IMG/VR virus record: IMGVR_UViG_3300036773_000046
Location: 15,067-79,066 of that record
DNA from: a virus
Taxonomy: Duplodnaviria; Caudoviricetes
Direction: 5' to 3' (one strand)
DNA: 64,000 nucleotides
The position numbers and the translations under genes are program-made. The notes under the pieces are model-generated. The model saw only the letters and a program-made list of their open reading frames with translations, was not told the DNA's origin and ran no database searches. Of this stretch, positions 10,475-54,700 are shown piece by piece; the first letter of the stretch is position 1; every line of letters begins with the position of its first letter.

Positions 10475-10814
10475 TCTCAGTCACCTTCTTTTCGATCCGC
10501 TCGGCGCGCTCATCGTGCTTCTTAAGTTGAACCATGACGTCGCCAATCTCTTTCTTACTCGTCACCACAAGCTCGAGTGCCTCACGCCGGCCACGTTCGG
10601 CGTCACGCTCGGCGACGACGCGTAAGATCTCTTTGTCTTGAAGATCACGCTCAACGATAAGGTCATCTCGAACCGACCGCAGCTGGGTAAGCTGCTCCTT
10701 CGCCATCGCCGCGCGAATGATGACGAAAAGACCTGCGGCGAGTGTGAGGACGCTAAGGGTCGCGAAGATCGCACCCGGTACGGTGACGTAAGACAGGGAG
10801 ACCGCATCAGTCAC
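10440..10814 (-). CDS. Membrane-anchored coiled-coil protein, probable lysis-region gene
   Basis: N-terminal TM helix then a charged heptad-like region; GTG start near the upstream stop with gaaggga RBS. Confidence 0.5.
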   Translation of the reverse strand: MTDAVSLSYVTVPGAIFATLSVLTLAAGLFVIIRAAMAKEQLTQLRSVRDDLIVERDLQDKEILRVVAERDAERGRREALELVVTSKKEIGDVMVQLKKHDERAERIEKKVTEIDRNTRPTRQR

Positions 10815-12170: not shown

Positions 12171-12397
12171 TGCGGCACCTTTGTGTTCGCCTTGTCCACG
12201 GCGTTGAGCACCTTGAACATCTCCAGCAGGTCGTTCTCCATCTTCACTTGTTCGCTTGAGTGTGGAATCTTATGGTTCTCATTGAGCAGCTCCCTAAGCT
12301 GCGTGAGGTAAACGTCCATGACCGGCGGCGACGCCACTAGTCTGTCGTACCGCATGCGTACGGACTGCACACGTTCCTTCGTGGTCATGGTGATCAT
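12167..12397 (-). CDS. Hypothetical protein
   Basis: ATGA overlaps with terminase stop and GT2 start; MITMTTKERVQ... Confidence 0.5.
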   Translation of the reverse strand: MITMTTKERVQSVRMRYDRLVASPPVMDVYLTQLRELLNENHKIPHSSEQVKMENDLLEMFKVLNAVDKANTKVPQ

Positions 12398-16882: not shown

Positions 16883-16954
16883 AATCACTTCCCAGTTCGA
16901 AGTTGTAGGGCCTCGTAATGACGCTATAGAGCTTTTCGGATTCCGGAGTCTCGG

Positions 16955-33096: not shown

Positions 33097-33762
33097 ATGC
33101 TGGTGCAGCGAGGTGAGATCAAGTTGGCGTGCGTGTGCGGTCCGTTCATCGTCAACGGCAACGTATACCCTCGCCCGCCGTTTCGACACTTGATCACCAC
33201 CTGCCCGGACTACCGACGCACCTGGTCTTTGCCACCGAAGGATCCGAAGGTTGGCGACCTGGTGGACGTGCACGGGTCGCTGGCCGTGGTCACCGAGATC
33301 GTCGCGGGTACGAACTACGAGGTGGTGATGGAGCCGTGAAGGTTGGAGATCGCGTACACTCGAACGAACTTAGCGGCACCGTGAACCGTGTCGAGGTGCG
33401 TCGGATCATCAACGGCCGCGGCTCGGTGTACGTCGAAGAGATCTACGTCACGTGGGCGGGCGGTCTTCCCGACCCACCGCCGTTCGAGAGACGAGATCAA
33501 CGCCCTTGATACGTTGCGATAGCTAGGAAACGTTGAAGGATGATAGGTGCCACCACCATCCCCGCAGCTTCGGCAGGTGAGCGTGAGCTTAGGCACACGC
33601 GCGCTGCCCGACGTGAAGGCGGCGGTGGATCACGCGACACAGAACAAAGATCATGACCCGATCGTGTTCTTGATCTTAACCGACCAAGGACAGCAGCAGA
33701 CCAGGTGGTATTGCGAGAAGTGTATGCAGATCAACGGCCTACCGTACTTTGGGACCTCGTAA
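33097..33762 (+). CDS. Small hypothetical genes (33097-33339, 33336-33509, 33547-33762)
   Basis: Short tandem ORFs in operon orientation. Confidence 0.4.
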
Positions 33763-33763
33763 C

Positions 33764-34699
33764 GTGTTGATAATTTTGGAAGGACCTGATGGGAGCGGCA
33801 AAAGTACCCTCGCTAAGCTGATATTCGATCACCTAAACGAGACGCTGCCGGGTGATCACGTCGAGCTACTGCACAAGGGTCCGCCGCACGTGCACCCACT
33901 TAAGGAGTACGAGGCGCCGATCTTCTGGATGCGCGACTACCGACCGGGAACCAGCGAGCACCTCATCTGCGACCGATGGCACCTGGGCGAGGTGATCTAC
34001 CCGGCGGTGTTGGATCGCCCATCCGCGATGACGCCCGAGGTGTTGTGGCACATCGAGATGTTTCTGCGGTCGCGAGGCGCGCTGATCGTTCACGTGGATG
34101 AGCACACCGACACGCTGATGGAGCGGGTACGCACGCGAGGCGACGATCTTATCAATCCCGATCAGCTGCAGGACATCCGTCGGCGGTACTACGACGTGCT
34201 GGCTGATTCGATGTTACGTACCACGATGAGTCGACGACCCGAAGAGATCGTGAAGATCGCCCAAGAGCTAGACGCGATCTCGTCTCACCTGAATAACTTC
34301 GGCACGTACGTCGGACCACGGTACCCCGACGTCTTGCTGTTTGGCGAGGTACGCAACGTCCCTCAGCTGGTGCTGGATCGGCCAACGCCCGCCTTCATGC
34401 CCTACCCCGCGACGTCGGGTGCGTACCTGCTACGTTCGCTGCTCAACTGCCCAGAGAAGCGCGACAAGATCGGCGTTGCGAACGCATGCGACCGTGACGA
34501 CCCGTTCGACTTGTGGTGGGAGTTGGGTCAGCCCTTCGTCGTGTCGCTAGGCGCGAAGGCGACGTTGACGCTGCGACGCAAGGAGATCTTCGTCTCACGG
34601 GTGGTGAATCACCCACAGTACGTGAGACGCTTCAAGTCAAGATTCGGCGCGCAGTACGCACGACAGATTCTCTACGGCGAGGAGCCGACGTGGAGTTAG
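33764..34699 (+). CDS. dNMP (thymidylate-like) kinase fused to a uracil-DNA-glycosylase-fold domain
   Basis: LEGPDGSGKST, ICDRWHLGE, RVRTRGD; C-terminal LLFGE, SGAYLL, VVSLGAKA, NHPQY. Confidence 0.7.
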   Translation: MLIILEGPDGSGKSTLAKLIFDHLNETLPGDHVELLHKGPPHVHPLKEYEAPIFWMRDYRPGTSEHLICDRWHLGEVIYPAVLDRPSAMTPEVLWHIEMFLRSRGALIVHVDEHTDTLMERVRTRGDDLINPDQLQDIRRRYYDVLADSMLRTTMSRRPEEIVKIAQELDAISSHLNNFGTYVGPRYPDVLLFGEVRNVPQLVLDRPTPAFMPYPATSGAYLLRSLLNCPEKRDKIGVANACDRDDPFDLWWELGQPFVVSLGAKATLTLRRKEIFVSRVVNHPQYVRRFKSRFGAQYARQILYGEEPTWS

Positions 34700-35523
34700 T
34701 GATCAAGGACCTTCGCGAGGACTACGTCAAGATCTGTCGTGACGTGGTGACGTACGGCGAGATGGTCTACGGACGTGGCACGGCGACGAAGGAGTGGACG
34801 GGCGTCACGCTACTGTGTCCCGACCCGACCGTCCCGCTGCTGCCCGTCGGCGTCGGACGTCGCGTCAACCTGAAGCTCGCGGCGCTTGAGGCGCTGGGCA
34901 TGATCGCCGGTGAGTGGCCGTGGGACTTGATCACGCGGGTGGCGCCTCTTTACTCGTCTGTGCTGGTGTCGGGTGACGACCCAGGCGCCGCACAGTACGC
35001 CGCGTATGGACCGCGCATTTCGCGGCAACTACCCGTCGTGCTCGACATGCTGCGGGAAGACAACGCGACGCGGCAGGCGGTCTTGCAGATCTGGAAGCCG
35101 GAAGATCTCACGCACCAGGGCGACCGTCCTTGCACGATCTCTCTGCAGTTCTTACGTCGCAACGCAAAGCTAGAGTGTCACACGTACATGCGATCTCAGG
35201 ACGTGTGGCTTGGACTGGCGATGGACGTGTTCGTGTTCACGCAGCTACAGCTGACGATGGCGGCGGCGTTGGGCGTCTCACCCGGCAAGTACGTGCATCA
35301 CGTCGGTAGCCTACACGCGTATCAACGCGACTTCGAACGCATCCACGAGATGGCTGAACACCCGATCTCAGCGGCGGTCGACGAGTTGCCGCAGGGCTTA
35401 CGCGTCGTGAAGAACCCGCAGATCATGGCGAGCCTGATCTTAGCAGGCTCGGCGCAGTCGTCGGACAACGAGTGGTACCTACGCCAGATGGCACTGATCA
35501 GGAAGATCAAGACGAATGCTTGA
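34690..35523 (+). CDS. Thymidylate-synthase-family enzyme, probable dCMP hydroxymethylase
   Basis: YGPR, TRQAVLQIW, catalytic PCT, RSQDVWLGLAMD with Asp where E. coli ThyA has Asn177, SLHAY. Confidence 0.75.
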   Translation: MELVIKDLREDYVKICRDVVTYGEMVYGRGTATKEWTGVTLLCPDPTVPLLPVGVGRRVNLKLAALEALGMIAGEWPWDLITRVAPLYSSVLVSGDDPGAAQYAAYGPRISRQLPVVLDMLREDNATRQAVLQIWKPEDLTHQGDRPCTISLQFLRRNAKLECHTYMRSQDVWLGLAMDVFVFTQLQLTMAAALGVSPGKYVHHVGSLHAYQRDFERIHEMAEHPISAAVDELPQGLRVVKNPQIMASLILAGSAQSSDNEWYLRQMALIRKIKTNA

Positions 35524-35947
35524 AACGAGAACACGGCCCAGCGAGGACGAGGTGCTACTGCACGTCGCCTACGCCATCGCCGCGCGCGGTACCTGCCCGA
35601 ACCTACAGGTCGGCGCGGTGATCGCCCGCGACGGTAGGATCTTGAGCACCGGGTACAACGGCGTGCCGTCTGGCTTCGAGCATTGCACGCACCCGAGGCG
35701 GCAGCCGGGCGACCCGATCGTGAAGTGTGGCGCCATCCACGGCGAGGCTAACTCCATCGCGTGGGCGGCGCGCAACGGAGTGTCAACCGTTGGTGCGACG
35801 ATGATCTGCACCGACACGCCGTGCTGGACGTGCGCTCAGATGATCGTGCAGGCGGGAATCGTGCGCTTTGTTGCGGATAGAGAGTACCGGCGAACCGAGG
35901 GTGTGGACCTACTGCGGCAGGCGAACGTGCAGGTGGCAATGCTGTGA
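35516..35947 (+). CDS. dCMP deaminase
   Basis: QVGAVI, STGYNG, HGEANSI, TPCWTCAQMIVQAGI. Confidence 0.9.
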   Translation: MLETRTRPSEDEVLLHVAYAIAARGTCPNLQVGAVIARDGRILSTGYNGVPSGFEHCTHPRRQPGDPIVKCGAIHGEANSIAWAARNGVSTVGATMICTDTPCWTCAQMIVQAGIVRFVADREYRRTEGVDLLRQANVQVAML

Positions 35948-35962
35948 CGTTGGTGTTGATTA

Positions 35963-37858
35963 GTGGGTGACATCATACCCCTGCGTCCCAATGAGAACAC
36001 GATCGTTGGGCAGGGGTATCGACCCTTAGGTGAGGCGCGTGCGCACCTCGTCGAAACCACCGACGACGCGTTCGAGTTGCTACGGTGGCTCAGCACGAAG
36101 ACGGAGATCGCCCTCGACACGGAGACCACCGGCATCGACCGTCAGAAAGATCGTCCACGCATGGTCCAGATCGGCGACGAGATGGACGGCTGGGCGATCC
36201 CGTTCGAGCGCGCCGCGTTCATCGTCGATGACGTCGTACGCCGCTTTGAGGGCGAGTACGTGATGCACAACGCGACGTTCGACGCGCACATGCTCGAGTT
36301 TCGCGGCGCCGTCAAGCCCATACCCACCAACAAGATTCACGACACGCGCATCATGGCGCACGTGCTGTCGTCCACCGGACCACTCGGCCTCAAGCCTCTC
36401 TCCCAGCGCTTTGTGGACGCGGGTGCCACCGCCGCGCAGGAGGCGCTGAACGACGGCATTGGCAAGCACGGCGGGTGGACGTGGGCAAACGTGCCAGTTG
36501 ACTACGAACCCTACTGGGTGTATGCCGCGTTAGACACCGTGTTGACCAAGCGATTGAAAAATCACTTGTGGCCGCAGGTGCAGACCATCGCGCCCAACTC
36601 GTACTCTCTCGAGATGCTCGTCATGTGGGTGTGCGCGAAGATGGAACGTAAGGGCGCGAAGATTGACCGCCAGTACACCCAGGAGTTCAGCGACAAGCTC
36701 GAGGTGTACGCGGGCCAGGTTGAGGACTGGGTGCGACAACACTACGGCGCCAGCGCGGGATCCGACGAGGCAATCGTTGCGATCTTAGAACGTGAGGGCG
36801 TGCCGCTGTGGAAGCGCACGCCGTCGGGCAAGCGGTACTCGCTCGACAAGGAAGTGATCGGCGAGATCGAGCACCCATTGGCGAAGGCGGTGCAGGGTCG
36901 CCGGCAAGCCGTGAAGATCATGTCCACCTACCTACGGCACTACCTACTTGAGACCGACGCGAACGACCGTGTGCACCCGTCGATCAACACCGTCGGCGGC
37001 ACCAGCAAGAGTCCCTTCGAGTCGGGCGGCGCGCGTGGCGTGCGCACGGGTCGTATGTCGATGGACTCGCCCAACCTGCAGAACGTACCCATCCGCACCA
37101 AGGAGGGTAAGAAGATCCGCAACTGCTTCATCGTGGACGACGAGGAGACGTGGATCAAGTGCGACTTCGATCAGATTGAGATGCGTCTGTTCGCGCACAT
37201 CGCGGATGACAAGGCGCTCATCGACGCGTTCGTGCAGGCGCACATGGGCGGTGTCGACATGTTCACCCGCGCCTGCCGCGACATCTTTCAAGATCAAGCA
37301 ATCTTAAAGAGCGACGACCGACGGCAGTACGTGAAGAACGGGTTCTACGCGATCTTATACGGCGCGGGTCTCGAGCAGTTCGCGAAGACGGCGGGCATCA
37401 GGCATCCCGACGGCGCTCCCGATCTTGGCTCGGCGAACGCGTTCCTCGTGCAGCTACACCGACGATATCCCGGCATCAAGCAGCTGCAGGCGATCACCGA
37501 GCAGGATGCCATGCAGCGACTGGCAAGTGAGGGTGAGGCGTACGTGGAGTCTCCGTTGACGCGTCGTCGATTCGTCGCCGACCGTGGTCGCGAGTACGCG
37601 CTCATGAACTACATGGTGCAGGGCGCCGCGGGTGAGATCTTGAAGATGAAGATTGTGCAGGCGGACATGGCCGGGCTGGGCGACTACATGCTCTTTCCGG
37701 TTCACGACGAGATCGACTTTGCGATCCCGACGAACGACCTACCCGATGCGACGCAGACGATCAAAGAAGTAATGAACGACGACGAGTTGCTCTCCGTGCC
37801 CGTGACCTCGACGATGTCGCTGGGTGATCGCTGGGGCGACGTGAAGGATGAAGAATGA
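35963..37858 (+). CDS. polA: DNA polymerase family A with 3'-5' exonuclease
   Basis: LDTETTG, HNATFD, HDTRIM, TGRMS..SPNLQN, DFDQIEMR, RQYVKNGFYAILYGAG, NYMVQG.A, VHDE. Confidence 0.95.
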   Translation: MGDIIPLRPNENTIVGQGYRPLGEARAHLVETTDDAFELLRWLSTKTEIALDTETTGIDRQKDRPRMVQIGDEMDGWAIPFERAAFIVDDVVRRFEGEYVMHNATFDAHMLEFRGAVKPIPTNKIHDTRIMAHVLSSTGPLGLKPLSQRFVDAGATAAQEALNDGIGKHGGWTWANVPVDYEPYWVYAALDTVLTKRLKNHLWPQVQTIAPNSYSLEMLVMWVCAKMERKGAKIDRQYTQEFSDKLEVYAGQVEDWVRQHYGASAGSDEAIVAILEREGVPLWKRTPSGKRYSLDKEVIGEIEHPLAKAVQGRRQAVKIMSTYLRHYLLETDANDRVHPSINTVGGTSKSPFESGGARGVRTGRMSMDSPNLQNVPIRTKEGKKIRNCFIVDDEETWIKCDFDQIEMRLFAHIADDKALIDAFVQAHMGGVDMFTRACRDIFQDQAILKSDDRRQYVKNGFYAILYGAGLEQFAKTAGIRHPDGAPDLGSANAFLVQLHRRYPGIKQLQAITEQDAMQRLASEGEAYVESPLTRRRFVADRGREYALMNYMVQGAAGEILKMKIVQADMAGLGDYMLFPVHDEIDFAIPTNDLPDATQTIKEVMNDDELLSVPVTSTMSLGDRWGDVKDEE

Positions 37859-38625
37859 CTGATCTTGAAGTGCAGCTGGTCGCAACCACGCAGTTCCACT
37901 TGCCGGTAGGCGTGCCGTGGAAGCCTGACATCGCGTCGGCAAGCTATCAATACAGCGACGATCCTGCCTACCTGATCGAGTTCGCAGGACGTGCGTGTTA
38001 TCAGTCGTGGAACCGCCCCAACGTGAATACCGCAACCGTCGCCGGGTACATCGCTCATCTCATTGAGGTGGGCCACCTGTCAGTGCTGGAGCACGCGTCG
38101 GCATCGTTCTACATTCGTGGGATCACGCGTTCATTGTCACACGAGCTGGTGCGCCACCGACACTTTAGTTACTCACAGCTGTCGCAGCGGTACGTGGACA
38201 GCGGCGGCACCGAGTTCATCATGCCACCCGAGGCGGTCGGTGACGCGTTCCTCGAGGCGATCATCGCCGATCACCACGAGAAGTCGTTGGCGACGTACGA
38301 TGACATCGTGAATCACCTCATGGAGAAGCTGAAAGACGAACCTGGAACGTCGGTGGAACGGCGTAAGCGTGCACGGCAGACGGCACGTGCAGTGTTGGGC
38401 AATGACGTCGAAACGCAGATCGTCATGACTGGCAACTACCGCGCGTGGCGACACTTCATCCGCATGAGAGCAACGGCGGGTGCAGACACCGAGATCCGAA
38501 AGCTAGCCGTCAAGATCTTACTGCGCCTACAAGAGTTTGATCCCGCGGTGTTCGGCGACTTCACGTTAGACACGCATACTGACGGCACGCTGATCGCTTC
38601 AACCGAGGTGGGGCAAGAACAATGA
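37855..38625 (+). CDS. thyX: Flavin-dependent thymidylate synthase
   Basis: EFAGRACY, HLSVLEH, ELVRHRHFSYSQLSQRY, TGNYRAWRHF, EIR. Confidence 0.95.
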   Translation: MTDLEVQLVATTQFHLPVGVPWKPDIASASYQYSDDPAYLIEFAGRACYQSWNRPNVNTATVAGYIAHLIEVGHLSVLEHASASFYIRGITRSLSHELVRHRHFSYSQLSQRYVDSGGTEFIMPPEAVGDAFLEAIIADHHEKSLATYDDIVNHLMEKLKDEPGTSVERRKRARQTARAVLGNDVETQIVMTGNYRAWRHFIRMRATAGADTEIRKLAVKILLRLQEFDPAVFGDFTLDTHTDGTLIASTEVGQEQ

Positions 38626-43306: not shown

Positions 43307-43597
43307 GTGGAGTTTGAAAGAGCAAGTACCACCGCAGTAGGCGCGTATAAGCAAAAGTGTGAAGCGTGTAGCGGTGAGTTGTATCAGCAGCCCATCGCGC
43401 GTGCAGTTATTAGCGAAACACACAAGCCTTGGATCCACGCATCTCTTAAGTGTGCATCAATCATGGGTGAACGCTACAGCTCACAACTGTGGAGTGACGC
43501 AACACGTAAGAGTGAGTGTGAAGAGGCTGCGCGAAAGGGTGCATCCATGCGTTACGTTGGTGGAGGCCGCGGTAAAGACTGGGTACACACGCTATGA
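43307..43597 (+). CDS. Hypothetical protein (lower GC)
   Basis: 96 aa with Cys pairs; overlaps the next start. Confidence 0.4.
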   Translation: MEFERASTTAVGAYKQKCEACSGELYQQPIARAVISETHKPWIHASLKCASIMGERYSSQLWSDATRKSECEEAARKGASMRYVGGGRGKDWVHTL

Positions 43598-45375
43598 CAG
43601 CTTCTACACAGCCTGCAACCCAGCAGGCTACACCCGTCACGCAGCAGGCGCCGCAGCCGATCCAGGTGATCACGCCGTTTGGCGTACAGCAGCGCATGTC
43701 GTGGCTGATCCACGGCCGGTCGAAGCGAGGCAAGTCCACGCTCGCGTCGTCGGCGCCCAAGCCCCTCCTTGTGCTCGATGCCGAGGGCTCGTGGCGATTC
43801 ATTCCGCCGGGTGAGGGGAAGGTGATCAAGTACTGGGACCCACTACGTGAGACGCCACCGGTCTACGACGGAACCTGGGAAATCTGCGTCGTGCACGTGC
43901 AGGAGTGGAACACGGTCGACCTCGTGTACAAGTACCTCACGCAGTGGCCGTTGCCGTTCGTGTCCGTGATCGTCGACTCGATCACCGAGATTCAGCGGCG
44001 GTGCTTTCTCCCGGACACCGAGGTGTTGACGCCTAGCGGCTGGGTAGCAATTACTGACGTACGTGAGGGTGACGCCATTGCTCAATACCACGCCGATGAT
44101 GAGCGAATTACGTTTGCGGCGACCACTGATGTGCAGTCATTTGATTACTCTGGTGACGTCGTTCGTACGCAAACAAACTTTGCAGATCTTGCGGTAACGC
44201 CCGATCATCGGATGCTTGTTCGTAACACCAAGCAACATGTTCCCTATGAACGCACAGCTTGTCAGTTGCTTGGTGGCACCTACTACCTACCGGTTGCGGG
44301 AAGATACCACGGTGGATCGGCTGACACCCCAACCGACGATGAGATTCGTTTGCTCGTCGCGTTGCAGGCTGACAGCTATCACGCCACCACCAACGTGTAC
44401 GCGTTCAACCTTCGCCGTGACCGTAAAAAGACTCGTCTTGAACGTCTATGTCAAGCTACGGGCACACGGTACCGACGCATTGACCGAGGTGACGGGTGGA
44501 CTCACTTTAGGGTCTGGCGAACTGCAGTGATCGACAAGTGGTTGCCTGAGAAGACGTTCCAATGGATCATGCTAGACTGGTCAGAGCATGGACGCACCGT
44601 GTTTCTTGACGAGCTTGCGTCGTGGGATGGTTCACGCGCCCCAAGATCGGTGCATTACGGAACGATCAACGACCAAAATGCAGACATTGTGTCGGCAGTT
44701 GCCGCATTGACGGGTCGTGGCTCAAGCGACATGATTGGGCGCACACGCATCGGCACTCCGTATCATCGCATGACGGTCAGTGACTACACGTGGCGCCGTG
44801 TTGGACGAAGTGACTTCACGACTAGCGAGAAGTATGTTGGACGTGTGCACTGCGTCACTGTACCGTCTGGATTTATAATTACACGACGTAACGGCAAGGT
44901 AACCATCGCTGGGAACTGCAAATCAAATCTCAAGGGCACCGACGCCATGAAGATCCAAGACTGGGGCGTGTTGCTCTCGGTCATGGACGCGACGATTCGC
45001 GGGTTCCGTGATCTCTGCCTGATGCCCCAGCTCAACGTTCGGTGCGTGGTCTTCGTCGCGGAGACGAAGGACGGCCCACTGGGTCGTCTCATCCCCGCAA
45101 TGCAGGGTCAGATCGCAGGTTCGCTACCCTACTGGGTAGACGTTTGCGGCTTCCTCTACGAGGACTACGAGCTCGACGAGAACCAGCAGGCGACACGCGA
45201 GGTTCGGCGCCTGTGGATCAGTCCTCATCAGATGTACGAGGCGGGAGAGCGAGTGCAGGGACGACTCGGCAAGGTACTCACCGTCGCTAAGCCACCCGAC
45301 GGGCAGGTCGGCGTGGAGATCAACTACTGGATGCATTTTGTATTTGGTATTCCCTGGAATCAACAAGCTTCTTAA
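43594..45375 (+). CDS. Sak4/AAA_24-like recombination ATPase interrupted by an intein
   Basis: Walker A HGRSKRGKST, Walker B VIVDS, later VFVAET, SLPYWVDVCG. Confidence 0.8.
   Translation: MTASTQPATQQATPVTQQAPQPIQVITPFGVQQRMSWLIHGRSKRGKSTLASSAPKPLLVLDAEGSWRFIPPGEGKVIKYWDPLRETPPVYDGTWEICVVHVQEWNTVDLVYKYLTQWPLPFVSVIVDSITEIQRRCFLPDTEVLTPSGWVAITDVREGDAIAQYHADDERITFAATTDVQSFDYSGDVVRTQTNFADLAVTPDHRMLVRNTKQHVPYERTACQLLGGTYYLPVAGRYHGGSADTPTDDEIRLLVALQADSYHATTNVYAFNLRRDRKKTRLERLCQATGTRYRRIDRGDGWTHFRVWRTAVIDKWLPEKTFQWIMLDWSEHGRTVFLDELASWDGSRAPRSVHYGTINDQNADIVSAVAALTGRGSSDMIGRTRIGTPYHRMTVSDYTWRRVGRSDFTTSEKYVGRVHCVTVPSGFIITRRNGKVTIAGNCKSNLKGTDAMKIQDWGVLLSVMDATIRGFRDLCLMPQLNVRCVVFVAETKDGPLGRLIPAMQGQIAGSLPYWVDVCGFLYEDYELDENQQATREVRRLWISPHQMYEAGERVQGRLGKVLTVAKPPDGQVGVEINYWMHFVFGIPWNQQAS
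44002..44916 (+). mobile_element. Intein (305 aa) with degenerate LAGLIDADG homing-endonuclease region
   Basis: N-junction QRR|CFLPDTEVLTPSGW, block B VTPDH, C-junction VHCVTVPSG...TIAGN|CKS; lower GC than flanks. Confidence 0.9.
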
Positions 45376-46373: not shown

Positions 46374-46458
46374 TGAACACGGCGGAGGTAATCACGCTGA
46401 TCATCTGCGCCACAATCGCGGTGATCGCCTGGGCGGAAGCTTGGGTGAAACGTAAGAA

Positions 46459-47832
46459 GTGATAATCTCATATGGGAAGGTCGGGCGTGCAGTCGCATTG
46501 ACAGAGGCAGGCTGGTCGACCGTTGGCGGTGACATGGAACCTCCTCGCCTACTCCACGACCTAGCGTCGCGCAACCCGCAGCACACGTTCGCCATCATCT
46601 CTACGTGTCGTGATGACCCACAGGCATGTGGCTTCCCGCCCAACGTGGTGAACACGTGGACACCCGAACGTCTCGCGTGGTATTCGTCGCAGGTAAAGCC
46701 GTTTCAAGAGATCATGCGGCAGGTGTCCAAGACGGACATGGCGATGCTCGACGCGATCAGGGGGATCGAGGGTGTTATCGACACCATGCTGCTGCCTCTC
46801 GCAGAGAAGATGGAGGGTGCCGTCATCTGGTCGGGCCAACATGGGACGGCGAACAGCGTTCTCCCGTCGGTCACCGACCGCTCGGGTATACCTGGATTCA
46901 CACGGCCATATGACTCCTTCACTTTTTACGGTGGTGGGATCTTCAGGCTCATCAACGCGTGGCGTGACCTAGATCCGAAGCGTAATGAGGAGGTGTGGCT
47001 GATCGCCGACGCACGTAACCACCTCAAGGCACGCGACCAGAAGTGGCCGTTGCGTCATCCCGTACTCGGGCAGTTCAACTTCACACGCGATCTTCATCAC
47101 GAACGCTTCGGCGACAAGTCGAACCCGGCGGAGTTCTTCGGGTATGGCGACCGCGAGGAGACCGCGTCGTGGAAGACCGATCACACGTGGAAGTCACGCA
47201 TCAGCTACGTGTACTCGGGTCTCGAGGCGTGCGGCGTCATGCCCGAGCACGTCGGCCACTGGTACACGGACGACAACTTCAATCAACGTGCGCACTTCGG
47301 TCTCTTCATCAACGAGGCGGGTGGACACGTCGGCCAGGGCGCGGATCAGAAGGCCAACGAACACAAGCTCGGTCGTGCGACGATCACTCGCGACTGGGTG
47401 CTGCCGATTCAACCGGCGTTCATCCACGGCAAATGGACTAAGGCGTCAATGGAGGCGCTTAGCATCGACGTCACCTCGGTGCCGTTCGATCAGTACTTCC
47501 CAACGCTACGAACCGTCAAGTGCACGTTCACGACGCCATCTTCCTACAGCGGCTGGGCAACCACGAAGGCGTGGGAGGCGTTCGCCGTTGGCACGGTGTG
47601 CTTTCGACACCCAGAGTACGACACCCAAGATCACATCTACGGACGACTACCCGACGAGGTGCGTGGGTGGCTCTCACCCAAGACTCCTGAAGATCTCAAG
47701 GCACGCGTCGAGTTCCTCAACGGCAGCGAGGTAACGTGGAAGTGGCTGGTGCAGGCGCAGTATGATCTCTACCTAGACGTGGTGCTCAATCGCCCATGGC
47801 TGCAGAAGATCGAGGAAAGGCTGTTTGGATGA
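46459..47832 (+). CDS. T4 beta-glucosyltransferase-like DNA glycosyltransferase (GT-B)
   Basis: C-terminal GWATTKAWEAFAVGTVCFRHPEYDTQDHI...EDLKARVEFL...LVQAQ parallels the T4 BGT C-terminus as recalled from memory. Confidence 0.6.
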   Translation: MIISYGKVGRAVALTEAGWSTVGGDMEPPRLLHDLASRNPQHTFAIISTCRDDPQACGFPPNVVNTWTPERLAWYSSQVKPFQEIMRQVSKTDMAMLDAIRGIEGVIDTMLLPLAEKMEGAVIWSGQHGTANSVLPSVTDRSGIPGFTRPYDSFTFYGGGIFRLINAWRDLDPKRNEEVWLIADARNHLKARDQKWPLRHPVLGQFNFTRDLHHERFGDKSNPAEFFGYGDREETASWKTDHTWKSRISYVYSGLEACGVMPEHVGHWYTDDNFNQRAHFGLFINEAGGHVGQGADQKANEHKLGRATITRDWVLPIQPAFIHGKWTKASMEALSIDVTSVPFDQYFPTLRTVKCTFTTPSSYSGWATTKAWEAFAVGTVCFRHPEYDTQDHIYGRLPDEVRGWLSPKTPEDLKARVEFLNGSEVTWKWLVQAQYDLYLDVVLNRPWLQKIEERLFG

Positions 47833-47941
47833 GTTGGCACACTTGGAAACGACTTGGAGCGTTCAATCCCGGCCCTTACACACTTGATCTTTGGTGGTGC
47901 GAGCGATGTGGAAAGATCAAGGGTAAGGGTTGGCGTCTATC

Positions 47942-48157
47942 ATGAGAATGTTTCAGCTGGTACGTAAGGAAGATGTGACCGGCGTGTCGGGCACAGGCGT
48001 CGTCGCCGAGGGGGTTGAGTTCTCGTCGGGCGTCGTCGTGCTGACGTGGCTCTCTGACTGGCCTACCAGCGTCGTGTTTCACGACCGTGGTATCGACTCG
48101 GTGAAGGCGGTTCATGGGCACAACGGCTCGACGGTCATTCACTGGATAAGTCCGTGA
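47942..48157 (+). CDS. Conserved small actinophage hypothetical protein
   Basis: FQLVRKEDVTGVSGTGVVAEGVEFSSG.VVLTW. Confidence 0.65.
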   Translation: MRMFQLVRKEDVTGVSGTGVVAEGVEFSSGVVVLTWLSDWPTSVVFHDRGIDSVKAVHGHNGSTVIHWISP

Positions 48158-48978
48158 AGTGGACCTTCGCCAGCGTACCCACGCGTGAGGTGGCACGCTG
48201 GTGGGATCAGCAGCCGTGTAACGTCAAGCACAGCGACGCGTCGCCGGGATCCGTCAAGTTTACGCGTGACGTGCGCGATAAGGTCCGGCGCGCCGAGCCA
48301 CATCGCGTCGAGTTCATGCAGCTCGAACGCTGGAAGGGCAAGTGCGTCGTCGAGATCGGGTGCGGCATCGGCACCGAGGCGTTGGACTTTGCACGTGCGG
48401 GCGCACGCGTGTTCGCCTGCGACTTGTCCATTGAGTCGTTGCGAATTGCAACCACCCGCGCGTACTCTGAGCACTTGCAGGGGCAAGTGAAGTGGATCCA
48501 CTGGAACGCCGAGCAGGAGCTGCATCACGAGCTGCGACGACGCAAGGCTGACCTGATCTACTCTTTCGGCGTGCTGCATCATACGCCCAACCCAGACACC
48601 GCGTTGCGTCACCTGCGTCAGATGGCTGGTCCCAAGACGGAACTTCGCATCATGCTTTACAATCGCTGGTCCACGAAGGGTCTACGCTTAGGACTCACCG
48701 ACCGTAAGATCGCCAAAGGGTCGGAGGCGCGGGCCGACTCGCCGGTCACCTACGCATTCACGAAGAGACGCGCACGCACGCTGCTACGTAAGACTGGGTG
48801 GCAGGTGAAAAGCATTCACGTCGATCACATCTTCATGTACGACGTAGACGCGTACCGTCGTGGTGAGTTCGTGCTCGCGTTTCCCTGGCGGCACCTACCC
48901 GCGTGGGTGCGAGATCAGATCAAGCGTTTGGTAGGATGGCATCTACTGATCGTCGCCGAGCCGAGGAACAGATCATGA
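48154..48978 (+). CDS. Class I SAM-dependent methyltransferase
   Basis: VVEIGCGIG, ACDLS, DLIYSFGVLHH. Confidence 0.85.
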   Translation: MKWTFASVPTREVARWWDQQPCNVKHSDASPGSVKFTRDVRDKVRRAEPHRVEFMQLERWKGKCVVEIGCGIGTEALDFARAGARVFACDLSIESLRIATTRAYSEHLQGQVKWIHWNAEQELHHELRRRKADLIYSFGVLHHTPNPDTALRHLRQMAGPKTELRIMLYNRWSTKGLRLGLTDRKIAKGSEARADSPVTYAFTKRRARTLLRKTGWQVKSIHVDHIFMYDVDAYRRGEFVLAFPWRHLPAWVRDQIKRLVGWHLLIVAEPRNRS

Positions 48979-49964
48979 GCGTCGCAATCGTCAGCACAAG
49001 CATTCATGCGCATCCCGCCGCGTACGAGCTGTGGGCGAAGCAAGGGCACCTGGTCGTCGCGGGCGATCAGAACGCGCCGTCGTCGCTGCAGTACTTCATT
49101 AAAGATCTTGGCGGCACATACCTCACGCCGGAGCATCAGACGTCGTGGTCGTTCAGCGATAGCATCGGGTGGAAGTGCATTCAGCGTCGCAACGCGGCGG
49201 TGATGCACGCGTACCGCGAGGGCTTCGACTACGTGGCGACGGTAGACGACGACAATCAACCCGTGGACGACGACTTCATCGAACGGCACGTGGCGCACCT
49301 CAACGGCTCACTGCCCAACGACGTGCGGCTGTTGATCGGCGACAAGGACTGGACCGACATCGGGTGCATGTGCGTACCAGAGATCAGACAACGCGGCACG
49401 CCGTGGGGAATGATCCAAGCAAACTACACCGTGTCGACTGGTCACTTACCGAAGGTAGTCGCGTCGCAGGCGCAGGTGCTCGGCGATCCCGACTGCTGCG
49501 CGGTGACGCGTATCACTAAGAACCCGCAGGTGTCGGGCGTCGTACACAACGTCGTCGTCGGCGCCGATCAGTACGCGGCGTTCAACTCGCAGGCAACCGT
49601 GTGGGCTGGCAGGTGGGCGCCGTTGATCGCGTGCCTGCCGCACGTAGGTCGCTACGACGACATCTTCGCGTCATTCATCGCGAAGCGGATCATGATGGCA
49701 CACGGCGTAAGCTTCTTCGCGGGCGCGCCCTTTGTGTGGCAGCTGCGCAACGCGCACAACTTCGACAAAGATCTCAGTGAAGAGATCTTCGGCATGGACA
49801 ACACCGTGCCGCTCGTGGCGCGTATGAACAAGCTTCAACTGCCAGAGAGCCTGCCGAAGTCTTACGCGCAGATTGCCAACGCGCTTGAGGAGATCTTACC
49901 CGAGCGCACTCATCAGTTCATGCTCAAGTGGGCGCAAGAGTGGCTTAAGTTGGAGGCTAAGTGA
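48975..49964 (+). CDS. RGP/UDP-arabinopyranose-mutase or STELLO-like GT-A protein
   Basis: VVAGDQNAP, RRNAAVMHAY, ATVDDDN, GRYDDIFASFIAKRI. Confidence 0.6.
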   Translation: MSVAIVSTSIHAHPAAYELWAKQGHLVVAGDQNAPSSLQYFIKDLGGTYLTPEHQTSWSFSDSIGWKCIQRRNAAVMHAYREGFDYVATVDDDNQPVDDDFIERHVAHLNGSLPNDVRLLIGDKDWTDIGCMCVPEIRQRGTPWGMIQANYTVSTGHLPKVVASQAQVLGDPDCCAVTRITKNPQVSGVVHNVVVGADQYAAFNSQATVWAGRWAPLIACLPHVGRYDDIFASFIAKRIMMAHGVSFFAGAPFVWQLRNAHNFDKDLSEEIFGMDNTVPLVARMNKLQLPESLPKSYAQIANALEEILPERTHQFMLKWAQEWLKLEAK

Positions 49965-51145
49965 CGACGGTTGGAGTGCTGGGACTCGGTAAGCTCGGGT
50001 TACCACTTGCGCTGACGTTCGCGGAGGCAGGACACAAGACGCTGGTGTGGGATGTGGATGAACTGCCGCGTGACGCCGTGCGACGTAGGCAGAGTCACAT
50101 CGACGAACCCGACGTGCAGGGTATGCTGGAGTCGTTGCGTCTGCAACTCGCGCCGCCGGGACTTATGTCGGAGATCGCCGAGGTGGTGTTCGTGATCGTG
50201 CCGACGCCCTCGCTGCCTAGCGGCGCGTTCTCCGACGAGCACGTTGAGACGGCGATCGACATGATGGCGTACAACCGGTCGTCGTTGGACGGGCCCATCA
50301 TCGCGTGCGTAAGTACCCTATCACCCGGCTCGTCGTTGTGGCTGTCGAAGATGTCACGTGACCGCGGCATGCCCTTCGTGTACACGCCTACCATGATCGC
50401 ACTTGGCAGCGTTGTTCACGATCTTCGCGAGGCAGAGATGCAGATCATCGGCCAGGGCGCGTTGCCCGAAGAGCAGCGTGCGGCGCGCGTCGTGGGACGC
50501 GTCATGAAGAGCGTCGCGCGTTCGACGCCGCAGGCTTACATGCGTTACAGCTCGGCAGAGATCACGAAGATCGCAAGCAACGCGTTCTCCACCATGAAGA
50601 TTACGTTTGCGAACATGCTTGGGCACATGGCCGACGCACATGGCGCGAACGTCAACGAGATCAGCTACGGGTTGGCGCTGCGCGGACACGTCGGCTCGAA
50701 GTTGATCACCGCGGGTGCGGGCTTTGGCGGCCCGTGCTTCCCGCGTGACACGCACGCGTTCGACGCGGCGGGTGGCATGATGGGTAAGACGGTCCATGAG
50801 CTCAACGACAGGCACGCGTACATGATTGCGAGCCGAGTGGTCAACGCCCACCAAGAGCCGCCGACGACCTTCAGCATTCTTGGGCGCGAGTACAAGGAAG
50901 GTTCGAACTACCGCATCGAGCCGTTCAGCGACAAGGTGTCGGCGGTGCTTGAAGACGGCTACGAGCTGAAGCCGGTGGACAGCCGGGAGGCAGACGTCGT
51001 GGTCATCGCGATGCCACTGCGCAACGTGAACCTGTGCGATAAGATACGCGAGGGGGCGACGGTGATCGACCTCTGGCGCACGCATCCCTACCTAGGAATG
51101 TGTCCCGTACGCTACATCCCGTTTGGAATTGGAGAGACCAGTTGA
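49961..51145 (+). CDS. UDP-glucose/GDP-mannose 6-dehydrogenase family
   Basis: GLGKLGLPLA, IVPTP, STLSPG, AEITKIASNAF...KITFAN, GFGGPCFPRD. Confidence 0.9.
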   Translation: MTTVGVLGLGKLGLPLALTFAEAGHKTLVWDVDELPRDAVRRRQSHIDEPDVQGMLESLRLQLAPPGLMSEIAEVVFVIVPTPSLPSGAFSDEHVETAIDMMAYNRSSLDGPIIACVSTLSPGSSLWLSKMSRDRGMPFVYTPTMIALGSVVHDLREAEMQIIGQGALPEEQRAARVVGRVMKSVARSTPQAYMRYSSAEITKIASNAFSTMKITFANMLGHMADAHGANVNEISYGLALRGHVGSKLITAGAGFGGPCFPRDTHAFDAAGGMMGKTVHELNDRHAYMIASRVVNAHQEPPTTFSILGREYKEGSNYRIEPFSDKVSAVLEDGYELKPVDSREADVVVIAMPLRNVNLCDKIREGATVIDLWRTHPYLGMCPVRYIPFGIGETS

Positions 51146-52122
51146 CTAGGAAGGCGCTCGTTACCGGAGCCGGTGGCTTCATTGGTGGTCACCTCGTGCA
51201 GAGTTTACTTCACGAGGGCATGGACGTCATGGCAGTTGATCGTAAGCCGCGTGAAAGGTGGTATCAGACGCCACACGACGTGCGTAGCTTCACCGACACG
51301 AGCGTGCGTGAGCTCGTACCGGCAAACCTATCGGGCATCGACGAGGTGTATCACCTAGCCGCCGACATGGGCGGCATTGGCTACATCACGCACAACCTCG
51401 TGTCGTGCAGCCGCAACGTCGTCGACACGATCAACTTGCTGGACTGCGTGCATCCCGACACGCTGGTCTTCTTCTCCTCGTCGGCGTGCGTGTACCCCGT
51501 ACACATGCAGGAGAAGGGCGGGAACGTGTCGCTGGCAGAGCACATGGTGTGGCCCTACGATCCCGAACCCGGCTACGGATTCGAGAAGCTCTACGGCGAG
51601 CAGCTCATGAAGTGGTACCACGAAGAGCGCGACGTGCAAACACGCGTCGCGCGTTATCACAACGTGTACGGCCCGCACGGATCATGGAACGACGGTCGTG
51701 AGAAGGCACCCGCCGCCATCTGCCGCAAGGTCGCAATCGCAAAGCTCACGGGTGAACACACGATCGACATCTGGGGAGACGGCGAGCAGACGCGTAGCTT
51801 CATGTACGTCGATGACTGCGTCGAGGGCACGAAGCTGATTACCCGTGACACCCGACCTGACGCGTATGAGCCAGTCAACCTCGGCACCGAAGACTGGGTG
51901 ACGATCAACGAGCTGGTGTCCATCGTCGAGCAGATCGCGGGCGTGCACCTGCGACGACGTTACGATCTTACCGCGCCGCAAGGCGTGCGCGGGCGTAACA
52001 GCGACAACACCTTGATCGCCGAACGACTTGGGTGGGAGCCCAAGCTCACCCTCGAGTACGGGCTAGAGAAGACGTACCACTGGGTGTACGACCAGGTAAA
52101 GGCTGCGGCCGAAGGGTCGTGA
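51142..52122 (+). CDS. GDP-mannose 3,5-epimerase-like NAD-dependent epimerase
   Basis: TGAGGFIG, HLAADMGGIGYI, SSSACVYP, YGFEKL, GREKAPAAICRK, GVRGRNSDN. Confidence 0.85.
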   Translation: MTRKALVTGAGGFIGGHLVQSLLHEGMDVMAVDRKPRERWYQTPHDVRSFTDTSVRELVPANLSGIDEVYHLAADMGGIGYITHNLVSCSRNVVDTINLLDCVHPDTLVFFSSSACVYPVHMQEKGGNVSLAEHMVWPYDPEPGYGFEKLYGEQLMKWYHEERDVQTRVARYHNVYGPHGSWNDGREKAPAAICRKVAIAKLTGEHTIDIWGDGEQTRSFMYVDDCVEGTKLITRDTRPDAYEPVNLGTEDWVTINELVSIVEQIAGVHLRRRYDLTAPQGVRGRNSDNTLIAERLGWEPKLTLEYGLEKTYHWVYDQVKAAAEGS

Positions 52123-52997
52123 CCAACGAACTCAACACCACGCTGCTTGCACGCCTTGGCTGGTACGTCGCCGAGCGGCAAGCGACGTGGCATCGCCGGC
52201 AGCTTGGGATCACTCCGTGGTCGCCCGATCCCGTGATGTCATCAAACCACTTCACCAACGTCTACCGTGAACTTGATCCCGGCACGATCTATGCCCAAGA
52301 GCAACTCTCACAGCTTGATGAACTGCGTGACCGTATGTGGTTCGCGGTCGCGTATCGATTGGTCAACCGCCGCTCCACCTTCGAAGAGTACCCGGGTGGG
52401 TTCGGATGCTCATACACCGACGAGTGGCTGGCGTACCTTGAAGATCGTTACCAACGCGGGCTGACCGTCAAGACCAATCGACACCTCACCCCACGTCGTG
52501 AGTGGTACGAGAAGGCGTTGCGAACGATACCCACATTTCTACCTCGCGACGCGTCGGCGGCGTTCAAGACGTTGCACGGCGTCACGGGAGTGGGCGTGTT
52601 CACGGGTTGGCAGATACACTGCGATCTTGTGCAGTTCGGCGACATCGACTACGACCCATCATTCGTCGTCGTAGGTGACGGCGCGAGCTACTCGATCAGC
52701 TGCCTCTACGGGCAGCGACGGTTCGCCGACTACTGGCACGACGGGCGTGCGGGCACGAACATCGGACGTAAGCGTGCGGTAGGTGGCCGGGTGCGATCTT
52801 ACGCACACCCGTGGTTCAAGGAGGTGCTGCTGTGGCTAGTGGATCAGCAAGTTCATTGGCTGCCGTCGTACTGGCAGCCGTGGGATGGGCGTGCGCTCGA
52901 CCCCAAGAACGTCGAGCACTCACTCTGTGAGTGGCTGCGTTACGAACGTCATCTCATCAAGGATGCGGATGCGACACTTGATATACGATCAAGCTAA
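52119..52997 (+). CDS. aGPT-Pplase / 5-hmdU DNA kinase helical-domain family protein (HhH-glycosylase fold)
   Basis: ERQ.TW.RR..G..PWSPDPVM...HFTNVYRELD.GT, GVG.FTGWQI.CDL, EHSLCEW.RY. Confidence 0.6.
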   Translation: MTNELNTTLLARLGWYVAERQATWHRRQLGITPWSPDPVMSSNHFTNVYRELDPGTIYAQEQLSQLDELRDRMWFAVAYRLVNRRSTFEEYPGGFGCSYTDEWLAYLEDRYQRGLTVKTNRHLTPRREWYEKALRTIPTFLPRDASAAFKTLHGVTGVGVFTGWQIHCDLVQFGDIDYDPSFVVVGDGASYSISCLYGQRRFADYWHDGRAGTNIGRKRAVGGRVRSYAHPWFKEVLLWLVDQQVHWLPSYWQPWDGRALDPKNVEHSLCEWLRYERHLIKDADATLDIRSS

Positions 52998-53015
52998 GAC
53001 AGATTGGATTTTGAA

Positions 53016-53462
53016 ATGAGCGACTTCAACGACGTGGGCGACTTTCATCGTAAGATGGGACTACGCACGTCATCGGTTAGTCGAGTGGCGATGCTGCCTG
53101 ACCTCGACGACGCCGACGTGGACGACATGCTTCAGTTCCGCGTCGACTTCATGGACGAAGAGCTCACCGAGTTCAAGGATGGGTGGGCGGAGCAAGATCA
53201 CGCGAAGATGGCCGACGCGCTGATCGACCTCGTGTACGTCGCGATGGGAACGGCACACCTGCTCAACTACCCGTGGGCGGCGTTGTGGAACGAGGTGCAG
53301 TATGCGAACATGCAGAAGGAGCGCGCCGACGGCGCGGAAGACGCACGTTCAACGCGTAAGCACATGCTGGACGTCGTGAAGCCCGAGGGCTGGCAGCCGC
53401 CTGACGTCGAGGGTGTACTCAAGTACCATCGTAAGATCGACGACGATAGCTACGCGCACTGA
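53016..53462 (+). CDS. MazG-like all-alpha NTP pyrophosphatase (dUTPase/dCTPase-like)
   Basis: DFHRKMG, EELTEF, DALIDLVYVAMG, EVQYANMQK, VVKPEGWQPPD. Confidence 0.85.
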   Translation: MSDFNDVGDFHRKMGLRTSSVSRVAMLPDLDDADVDDMLQFRVDFMDEELTEFKDGWAEQDHAKMADALIDLVYVAMGTAHLLNYPWAALWNEVQYANMQKERADGAEDARSTRKHMLDVVKPEGWQPPDVEGVLKYHRKIDDDSYAH

Positions 53463-53464
53463 TC

Positions 53465-54700
53465 ATGTATCGAGCGTGTGATGTCATGGGCTTCGCGGGT
53501 GGCTTCACCCTGGGCATGGTGCAGGCAGGGTTTGAGCTCGCCGGCAAGAGAGAGCTACCCGGCGGCTTCGGCGCGTCCAACTGCCTAGCCAACCGCGATC
53601 TTCTTGGCGACGAGTGGGAACTCGAAGTGGGTCCCGGCGAGACGTGGACACCCGTGCAGGCTGACGCCGTGTTCGGCAACCCGCCGTGCTCGGGCTTCTC
53701 GGTGATGACGGCGCAGGCGCACCGCGGAATCGACGCAAAGATCAACGCGTGCATGTGGCACTTCAGCAACTACGTCGCACGGGTGAAGCCGCAGATCTCG
53801 ATCATGGAGAGTGTGCGCATGGCGTACACGACTGGTCGCCCACTGATGCAGCAGCTGCGCGCGAACGTCGAGCTGCAGACGGGTCTTAAGTACAACCTGA
53901 TTCACGTGTATCAGAACGCACTCGAGCTCGGTGGTGCGGCGCATCGTCCGCGCTACTTCAGCGTCATGGCGCGCGTACCCTTCGGCGTCGAGTACCCAAA
54001 CGTGCGCACACCTGTTCTTCGTGACGTCATTGAAGATCTCGAAGGACTCGACCTGACGTGGGAGCCACAGCCGTACAGACGTCCGCCGACGTGGTGGAGC
54101 AAGCCATCACGGTCGGACACGGGCATCGTAGACGGACACATGGTGTCTCGATCACCCGTCGTGACGCGCGCACTCGATCTTCTCGAGGCGAACGGCGGCT
54201 GGCCGCAGGGCAAGGCGGTGGGTAAGGTTCTCGAGGCGTACTACAAAGAGCACGGCACCCTGCCGAACAGCTGGCTCTACCAGAAAGATCGACTGGTCGC
54301 GCGTGACTTCTTCATGGGCTTCACCACGATGGTACGGTGGCGTGAAGATCGCCCAGCACGAGTGATCACGGGCGCGGCGTTGCAGTCGGTGCTTCACCCG
54401 TGGCTTGATCGAACGATCACACACCGTGAGACCGCACGTATCATGGGCTTCCCGGACGACTGGAAGATCAAGCCCATCGCCGGTAACGGCACGGCACCCA
54501 CGTGGGGCAAGGGCATCACGGTGCAGTGTGGTAAGTGGATCGGCGACTGGACCCGGCGGTCCATCGACGGCGAGCCGGGATCGAACCAAGGCATGCGCAT
54601 CGGAGACCGCGAGTACTTCATCGAGGCGACGCCACGCGTATGGAAGGCTTCCGTACCCGAACCCGACGTTGATCTAGACCCACTGGTGATCGGTGGCTAG
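53465..54700 (+). CDS. C5-cytosine DNA methyltransferase family
   Basis: GFAGGF (motif I), GNPPCSGFS (IV), MESV (VI, normally ENV), HRPRYF (VIII), RTITHRETARIMGFPDDW, GKGI (IX-X). Confidence 0.8.
   Translation: MYRACDVMGFAGGFTLGMVQAGFELAGKRELPGGFGASNCLANRDLLGDEWELEVGPGETWTPVQADAVFGNPPCSGFSVMTAQAHRGIDAKINACMWHFSNYVARVKPQISIMESVRMAYTTGRPLMQQLRANVELQTGLKYNLIHVYQNALELGGAAHRPRYFSVMARVPFGVEYPNVRTPVLRDVIEDLEGLDLTWEPQPYRRPPTWWSKPSRSDTGIVDGHMVSRSPVVTRALDLLEANGGWPQGKAVGKVLEAYYKEHGTLPNSWLYQKDRLVARDFFMGFTTMVRWREDRPARVITGAALQSVLHPWLDRTITHRETARIMGFPDDWKIKPIAGNGTAPTWGKGITVQCGKWIGDWTRRSIDGEPGSNQGMRIGDREYFIEATPRVWKASVPEPDVDLDPLVIGG

Follow-up and report, generated by a model that had tools for sequence, protein, structure and literature searches.

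The question raised by this locus is which sugar is transferred to which acceptor by a glycosyltransferase that is encoded amid the replication genes of a phage. The gene under study occupies positions 46459..47832 on the plus strand of a stretch of 64,000 nucleotides, here called the window, which represents the final 64 kb of a 79,066-bp virus record of IMG/VR (IMGVR_UViG_3300036773_000046) with a CheckV completeness of 98%. It starts with GTG and encodes a GT-B glycosyltransferase of 457 aa, which resembles the beta-glucosyltransferase (BGT) of phage T4, a GT63 enzyme. A preliminary description of the locus had proposed a divergent BGT-like enzyme in an actinophage. The predicted structure, the sequence profiles, the active-site residues and the gene neighborhood taken together make it probable that the protein is an inverting GT-B glycosyltransferase of the T4 BGT (GT63-like) lineage, which acts on 5-hydroxymethylcytosine (5hmC, hmC) in the phage DNA, with a donor that is uncertain.

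The AlphaFold2 model of the protein, which was calculated from a profile of 54 close homologues (A1), has a pLDDT of 91.4 and a pTM of 0.91 and consists of two Rossmann-like domains. The fold is GT-B, and BGT is the nearest solved structure over both domains. In a Foldseek search against the PDB the ranks 1-6 were all occupied by T4 BGT (E-values 3.3e-8 to 3.4e-7), whereas OtsA, WaaG and T4 AGT ranked lower, and in the structure comparison BGT was found about 5 Z units above every non-DNA transferase. The check by AlphaFold and Foldseek that had been suggested in the preliminary description therefore placed a DNA glycosyltransferase, and none of the non-DNA GT-B enzymes, at the top of the matches. 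In a library of viral models, one of the two best matches was a protein of an uncultured siphovirus that is labelled 'DNA beta-glucosyltransferase', and a search of the ESM Atlas retrieved only generic GT-like and viral clusters. The isoelectric point is uninformative as a proxy for DNA binding, because the median of the family is 6.5 and that of the BGT relatives is 6.8.

The resemblance to BGT exceeds chance, but only once profiles are used. Searches with the single sequence yielded no match in Pfam, PHROGs, NCBIfam or the PDB (phmmer), and precomputed Pfam domains were assigned to 0 of the 120 homologues listed. With the profile of the 54 close homologues BGT ranked first in the PDB at a non-significant E-value of 0.24. 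A broader alignment (A3; 59 sequences, down to 21% identity) is based on an exhaustive search through 1.84 billion representatives, in which 240 related clusters were recovered. With this profile BGT was the sole match in the PDB, at an E-value of 3.5e-7 and over BGT residues 192-349, which form the C-terminal, UDP-binding domain. Alignment by hhalign with BGT-family alignments, which were built from relatives in T4, S16, nattely and AB2I3, gave a probability of 88.8% for the narrow and of 96.1% for the broad alignment, the latter with an E-value of 3.7e-9 over 149 columns. The strings that had first called attention to BGT (TKAWEAFAVGTVCFRHPEYDTQDHI, PEDLKARVEFLN and LVQAQYD) are all present in the translation of the open reading frame (ORF), and the T4 strings that had been cited are correct, residues 265-336 of PDB 1bgt reading FITLRVWETMASDAVMLIDEEFDTKHRIIN...AELIDRVNELK...LSIQHD. 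The proposal of a divergent T4 BGT-like enzyme is thus borne out by the first six Foldseek ranks and by the only significant profile match in the PDB.

Several residues of the active site also speak for this assignment. Only D184, R306, K370 and D388 are invariant in all 59 sequences of the broad alignment, and the HMM alignments pair R306 with BGT Arg195, K370 with Arg269, E373 with Glu272 and D388 with Asp287. In the N-terminal domain D184-x-R186...W196-P197 pairs with D100-x-R102...W109-P110 of BGT (ADARNHLKARDQKWP versus TDIRLPFSQSWP) in both the local and the global hhalign alignment; the global alignment misplaces the first 40 residues and was used only around D184 and for the C-terminal domain. 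D184 is located just after the beta-strand 179-182 of the model. E27, at the start of helix 1, is invariant among the close homologues and pairs with BGT Glu22 in the same N-domain alignment. Because this alignment is weak, D184 is regarded as the putative counterpart of the catalytic Asp100.

The preliminary description had also stated that the enzyme is longer than BGT and contains insertions. The lengths are indeed 457 aa and 351 aa, and nearly all of the about 100 extra residues are found in the N-terminal domain, which comprises about 270 residues compared to about 165 in BGT, while the C-terminal nucleotide-sugar domain aligns almost without gaps to BGT 192-349. In the model the additions form a hairpin of helices at about 69-116 and, at about 202-252, a region of beta-hairpins; a loop modelled with low confidence (290-298) is restricted to the subclade of the window. 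As the extra length resides in the N-terminal domain, the insertions concern the side of the acceptor (DNA) more than that of the donor. The start codon is supported by the homologues, which keep the same N-terminus and in which Y5, K7 and R10 are invariant (narrow alignment); the call in the public collection (432 aa) begins 25 residues too late. A hydrophobic ORF of 29 aa (MNTAEVITLIICATIAVIAWAEAWVKRKK; 46374-46462) lies directly upstream, and its stop codon overlaps the start codon of the transferase gene in the sequence GTGA, which suggests translational coupling.

The nature of the acceptor is indicated by a set of genes for nucleotide metabolism. A homologue of thymidylate synthase ThyA with the signature of a dCMP hydroxymethylase is encoded at 34690..35523 (+). 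Its best match in the PDB is the CMP 5-hydroxymethylase MilA (3e-20), which outscores all thymidylate synthases, and BLASTP with T4 gp42 revealed the motifs D-x-x-C-T and MRS-x-DV...D in both proteins. In the numbering of E. coli ThyA, the protein contains Asp143, Cys146-Thr147, a retained Asp169 and Asp177. Both the cytosine-specifying Asp of the T-even type (gp42 Asp179, ThyA N177D) and the catalytic Cys are thus present, and the signature D143/C146/T147/D169/D177 was found in 35 of 37 related loci. Asp169 is informative because the synthases of 5-hydroxy-dCMP are marked by D169N (Lee et al., 2026, PMC13326640); a pathway to 5-hydroxycytosine (5hoC) of the RB69 type was considered and rejected, since this Asp is retained in the window and in 35 of 37 relatives.

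Next to the ThyA homologue are encoded a P-loop kinase similar to deoxynucleoside monophosphate (dNMP) and thymidylate kinases (33749..34699, +; Pfam Thymidylate_kin P-loop region, phrog_761 at 3e-15) and a dCMP deaminase (35516..35947, +; PF00383, 6e-21). A flavin-dependent thymidylate synthase ThyX (37855..38625, +; PF02511, 7.5e-52) can make dTMP without the help of the ThyA homologue. An all-alpha NTP pyrophosphatase of the MazG/PRA-PH type is encoded at 53004..53462 (+; PF01503 at 1.8e-11, phrog_671 at 4e-26), and relatives carry a dUTPase_2 or a MazG protein in this slot. The dNMP kinase, the MazG-type pyrophosphatase and the DNA polymerase PolA all belong to one syntenic module, with substrate specificities that are predicted. 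The kinase would perform a gp1-type conversion of hm-dCMP to the diphosphate, and the pyrophosphatase would have the role of the T4 dCTPase gp56. Because the ThyA signature together with the kinase, the pyrophosphatase and the deaminase parallels T4 gp42, gp1, gp56 and cd, the acceptor is most likely pre-replicative 5hmC. A post-replicative route that depends on TET was considered as well and found no support: TET proteins (Tet_JBP, PF12851) were not matched in the scanned ORFs of the window, in the relatives or in the whole 79-kb record, the last of these searches having been run without a positive control, since the control genomes gave no match either.

The transferase belongs to a family of at least 550 proteins. 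No homologue was present in 185,579 bacterial and archaeal species genomes, and therefore the family looks virus-specific. Neither tblastn with the transferase nor megablast with 20 kb of the window gave a match among 50,697 deposited phage records, and so far the family is purely metaviromic. A pattern scan of IMG/VR revealed 71 loci with relatives, 43 of which are at least 15 kb long and were used for the linkage counts. Within 10 kb of the transferase gene, Sak4, a PD-(D/E)XK nuclease and SNF2 are each encoded in 42 of the 43 long loci and PolA in 39; its neighbors further include a C5-methylase (43/43), the dCMP deaminase (34/43) and the ThyA homologue (32/43). A GT75 homologue adjoins it in 26 of 43, and synteny includes the dNMP kinase in 22 of 43. 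These loci hardly vary in gene order, and the transferase holds a fixed slot. In the window, the replication arm on the plus strand starts with the kinase, the ThyA homologue, dCMP deaminase, PolA and ThyX, continues with an SNF2 helicase, a PD-(D/E)XK nuclease, a Sak4-type ATPase with an intein, SSB and then the transferase, proceeds 3' of it with a small ORF, an S-adenosylmethionine (SAM) methylase, the GT75 homologue, a nucleoside diphosphate (NDP)-sugar dehydrogenase and an epimerase, and ends with a protein containing the helical domain of 5-hydroxymethyldeoxyuridine (5-hmdU) kinase, the MazG-type pyrophosphatase and the C5 DNA methylase.

Which sugar is donated probably depends on the variable cassette that directly follows the transferase gene. 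In the window this cassette comprises a class I SAM methyltransferase (48154..48978, +; PF08242/PF13649 at about 1e-14, phrog_22502 at 1e-39), for which a role as a sugar O-methylase is only a guess, a GT75-family homologue of NDP-pyranose mutases of the MtdL/RGP type (48903..49964, +; MtdL PDB 7yua/7xpr, E 1e-15), an NDP-sugar 6-dehydrogenase of the UDP-glucose/GDP-mannose dehydrogenase family (49961..51145, +; PF00984, PF03721, TIGR03026 at 7e-47) and a homologue of GDP-mannose 3,5-epimerase (GME) (51100..52122, +; PDB 2c59, E 2.4e-79, residues 17-339). The methyltransferase and the dehydrogenase are specific for the window. In the epimerase comparison plant GME is far ahead, the next family being UDP-glucuronate decarboxylase at 6e-30. 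In the A201A pathway a GME-type epimerase, MtdM, is paired with MtdL to make GDP-L-galactofuranose, and the homologues of this enzyme pair in the window suggest a furanose donor derived from GDP-L-galactose, possibly oxidised or methylated further. The GT75 homologue retains MtdL residues DDD109-111, N112, R159, D195, S228, Q229, R257, D260, R289 and H292, while D87 is replaced by Ile and the Mn-binding H287 by Gln. In MtdL His287 coordinates Mn, and mutation of Asp87 abolished activity (PMC9937993). The phage protein may therefore differ in metal use or substrate, or it may be a transferase instead of a mutase.

In loci without the mutase, sugar-1-phosphate nucleotidyltransferases and an APH-like kinase directly follow the transferase, with a dUTPase_2-type pyrophosphatase after them. 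The product of the next downstream gene is in nearly all loci an enzyme that forms or converts a sugar nucleotide, and the type of this enzyme differs between loci. A fixed transferase combined with interchangeable sugar-nucleotide cassettes is the pattern that is expected if the cassette supplies the donor. In a few loci (L066, L059) the transferase is separated from the pyrophosphatase or methylase by next to nothing, and therefore a host donor such as UDP-glucose must serve there.

From the observed fold, the homology with BGT, the residue conservation and the gene linkage we infer the acceptor and the donor as well as the sequence of steps, and the following mechanism is proposed. The ThyA homologue would make 5-hm-dCMP, which the adjacent kinase and host enzymes would raise to the triphosphate; the MazG-type pyrophosphatase would lower the dCTP level, and the phage PolA would incorporate hmC. 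In the cleft that separates its two Rossmann domains the transferase would bind the DNA duplex, with Asp184 as the presumed general base on the hydroxymethyl oxygen (the role of BGT Asp100) and with Arg306 and Lys370 predicted to hold the donor diphosphate (the roles of BGT Arg195 and Arg269), and it would add the base-proximal sugar to hmC after replication. In its most far-reaching form the proposal would be that a large clade of uncultured, soil-type, actinophage-like viruses puts a sugar that is novel for DNA on hmC. In the phage of the window this sugar would be of the L-galactofuranose type, possibly oxidised or O-methylated, made by GME and the GT75 enzyme and moved by an enzyme of the BGT lineage that has switched to a GDP-furanose, and the enlarged N-terminal domain and the linked C5-methylase would belong to the same system. 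This extended version is speculative, and we regard it as rather unlikely in its entirety.

Several observations weigh against an hmC-specific enzyme of the BGT lineage that is fed by the cassette. The sequence of the N-terminal domain, in which the catalytic base and the majority of the acceptor contacts reside, is not significantly similar to that of BGT, and PF09198, the Pfam model for this domain of BGT, did not match the transferase at E-values up to 0.1, whereas T4 BGT itself scores 8.7e-98. The local hhalign alignment that pairs D184 with D100 has an E-value of 0.0099 and a probability of only 4%. A counterpart of BGT Arg191 was not identified in the family alignments, in which N285-E286 occupy that region, Arg269 is replaced by Lys (K370), and E373, the position of Glu272, is Gln in some family members. 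BGT uses a UDP-sugar and not a GDP-sugar. The GT75 mutase is missing from 17 of 43 loci and the GME-like epimerase from most, and therefore the donor cannot be uniform across the family. MilA, which among solved structures is nearest to the ThyA homologue, has CMP and not dCMP as its substrate and serves the synthesis of a nucleoside antibiotic. The universally linked C5-cytosine DNA methyltransferase (53465..54700, +; PF00145, 1.2e-17), which is encoded about 1-5 kb downstream of the transferase and in some relatives is about 550 aa long with an extra C-terminal part, has intact motifs I (FAGGFTLG) and IV (GNPPCSGFS) and is hard to reconcile with a full replacement of C by hmC. In addition, the phage is uncultured and known as an IMG/VR genome alone.

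Three other explanations have to be weighed against this reading. The simplest of them is a plain beta-glucosyltransferase like T4 BGT, which transfers glucose from host UDP-glucose and yields beta-glucosyl-hmC, so that the mutase, the epimerase, the dehydrogenase and the methylase would serve a second decoration or an unrelated process. It would be in line with BGT as the closest relative by structure and sequence, with the retained diphosphate- and ribose-binding positions, and with the loci that lack the mutase or nearly the whole cassette and in which a host donor suffices. However, a sugar-nucleotide gene of varying type follows the transferase in nearly all loci, as if it fed the transferase, no second DNA-type transferase for the product of the cassette was found in the replication arm of the window, and at an identity to BGT of 9-13% the donor specificity is not transferable by homology; we therefore consider this explanation unlikely, but deserving of attention. 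It would leave the acceptor unchanged, in contrast to the second explanation, according to which the acceptor is not DNA and is instead a virion protein, a polymer of the host envelope or a small molecule such as a metabolite of the cytosine-nucleoside type formed via the MilA-like enzyme. This is improbable in view of the location of the gene inside a replication and recombination module, between SSB and the enzymes of the nucleotide pool and away from the structural genes, in 42-43 of 43 loci. The distance of BGT from all non-DNA transferases, its position as the sole sequence-profile match and the absence of the family from the cellular genomes searched also argue against it, and the separate GT2 enzyme and dehydratase beside the terminase could serve any virion glycosylation.

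The third explanation retains DNA and changes the base, the acceptor being 5-hydroxymethyluracil (hmU) or another modified base, perhaps formed after deamination of hm-dCMP by the adjacent dCMP deaminase. In 34 of 43 loci the gene of the ThyA homologue has that of the deaminase as its neighbor, there are PDB entries of T4 AGT in crystals with DNA that contains HMU, and a 321-aa protein of the window (52032..52997, +) matches the helical domain of the 5-hmdU DNA kinase and only this domain (PF18723, 1.3e-22). Against hmU stand the cytosine-type Asp177 of the ThyA homologue in 35 of 37 loci and the presence of ThyX for dTMP synthesis, and the 321-aa protein has no P-loop visible in its translation and is absent from all 71 related loci. 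T4 carries a dCMP deaminase, too, yet it is not known to make hmU. This explanation is accordingly given very little weight, and 5hmC is preferred as the acceptor. The true start of the 321-aa protein is probably located later, because the annotated start overlaps the epimerase gene by 90 nt.

Compared to the known enzymes, T4 BGT (GT63; PDB 1bgt, 1j39, 1nzd) shares with the transferase the profile homology of the C-terminal domain with counterparts of Arg195, Arg269 (as Lys), Glu272 and Asp287, probable counterparts of the catalytic Asp100 and Glu22, and the genomic partners, i.e., a gp42-type dCMP hydroxymethylase, a dNMP kinase, a dCMP deaminase and an NTP pyrophosphatase. In addition to the differences in length, identity, PF09198 and Arg191, it is encoded in the Straboviridae and relies on host UDP-glucose, whereas the gene of the window is followed by a variable NDP-sugar cassette and stems from GC-rich, actinophage-like genomes of siphovirus size.

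Closer in kind are the metaviromic enzymes GT66 and GT94 (419 aa), which are GT-B phage enzymes of the GT63 class (Pyle et al., 2023, bioRxiv 10.1101/2023.12.21.572611; GT53 belongs to GT4). Their best match in the PDB is T4 BGT, with Foldseek E-values of 1e-6 to 1e-7 and 11-12% identity, statistics that are very close to those of the window enzyme in a comparison by description, not by sequence. Their proposed catalytic Asp overlaps BGT D100, and they stem from subclass III clusters; a subclass III cluster with GT53 has been shown to add heptose to 5hmC (10.1101/2023.12.21.572611). The same study found that GT-B matches in IMG/VR accompany homologues of thymidylate synthase more often than TET. 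The clusters share with the relatives of the window locus an APH-like kinase and a nucleotidyltransferase as sugar-activating genes. They differ in their post-replicative route via a C5-methylase and TET (5mYOX), whereas in the window no TET was detected and hmC would be pre-replicative, and none of the pathways reported for them has a cassette of GME and a GT75 mutase.

Arabinosyl- and galactosyl-5-hydroxycytosine systems have been described for RB69, DLP3, HY126 and RL38J1 (Lee et al., 2026, PMC13326640). Like the window, these systems combine a ThyA homologue, a nucleotide kinase, a dCTPase, GT-B transferases and a phage-encoded supply of furanose sugar nucleotides, and in RL38J1 a pyranose-furanose mutase is employed. 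D169N is present in their ThyA homologues, which form 5-hydroxy-dCMP, unlike the homologue of the window, which keeps Asp169, and their mutase is an FAD-dependent UDP-Galp mutase and not a GT75 protein. The epimerase and the GT75 homologue are homologous to MtdM and MtdL of the A201A pathway, with the catalytic Arg159, Asp195, Arg257 and Asp260 of MtdL kept. However, this is a bacterial secondary-metabolite pathway without a link to DNA, and the phage mutase has Gln at the position of His287 and Ile at that of Asp87.

Since BGT-like transferases of metaviromes (Pyle et al., 2023) and furanosyl cytosine systems (Lee et al., 2026) have been published, the kind of system is already known. New is a large unannotated family with an enlarged acceptor domain in a fixed slot of an actinophage-like replication module, as are its pairing with a cassette of GME and GT75 and the unexplained universal link to a C5-methylase. 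The BGT lineage thus reaches into an entire clade of uncultured phages with GC-rich genomes, where Pfam, PHROGs and NCBIfam fail to recognise it. Sugars on the DNA are a major means by which phages counter restriction enzymes and CRISPR nucleases, and T4 BGT itself is in practical use for the mapping of 5hmC. With its fixed slot and swapped cassettes the family offers a set of naturally occurring, related transferases whose donor sugars probably differ, which would be useful for studies of donor selection in GT63-type enzymes and for new reagents for 5hmC labelling. If the cassette of GME and GT75 indeed feeds the enzyme, a new sugar would be added to the known DNA chemistry.

The host group 'actinophage' is one that we only infer, from the PolA of the window, which is closest to those of Microbacterium, Arthrobacter and Gordonia phages (34-37% identity), and from an Rv2525c-like/LysM lysin encoded in the phage genome. 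The Sak4-type (AAA_24) recombination ATPase is encoded at 43594-45375 and contains an intein (Hint_2 and Intein_splicing, residues about 137-424), in agreement with PHROG matches to the intein-bearing RNR, PhoH and ThyS families. A small protein of 75 aa (47930..48157, +; phrog_7499, 4e-26) is encoded between the transferase and the sugar cassette and was not found in the related loci. On the opposite strand the large terminase is flanked by a glycosyltransferase of the GT2 family and by an NDP-sugar 4,6-dehydratase/epimerase (region of the GT2, dehydratase and terminase genes: 10807-11523, 12394-13770 and 15842-16888, all on the minus strand); these represent a second glycosylation set, which is separate from the replication arm and possibly serves virion proteins.

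The module order recurs in the Actinomycetia phage DSL-LC01 (OQ999401.1, metagenome-assembled; locus L081, 22564-24700). The 348-aa 'glycosyltransferase' that occupies the transferase slot in this genome was considered as a homologue and rejected (hhalign probability below 1% versus the family as well as BGT). A UDP-galactopyranose mutase comes next, and the arrangement looks as if the transferase and the furanose-forming mutase had both been replaced by non-orthologous genes. As the transferase of DSL-LC01 is a positional analogue and not an orthologue, it is the slot and not the protein that is conserved more widely. A true BGT homologue is encoded in the cultured Enterococcus phage nattely (NC_055833.1; locus L003, 1-1758) two genes downstream of a ThyA homologue, which is 31% identical to that of the window. 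Nattely would be a Gram-positive case of the pairing of BGT with a ThyA homologue and could serve as an experimental stand-in.

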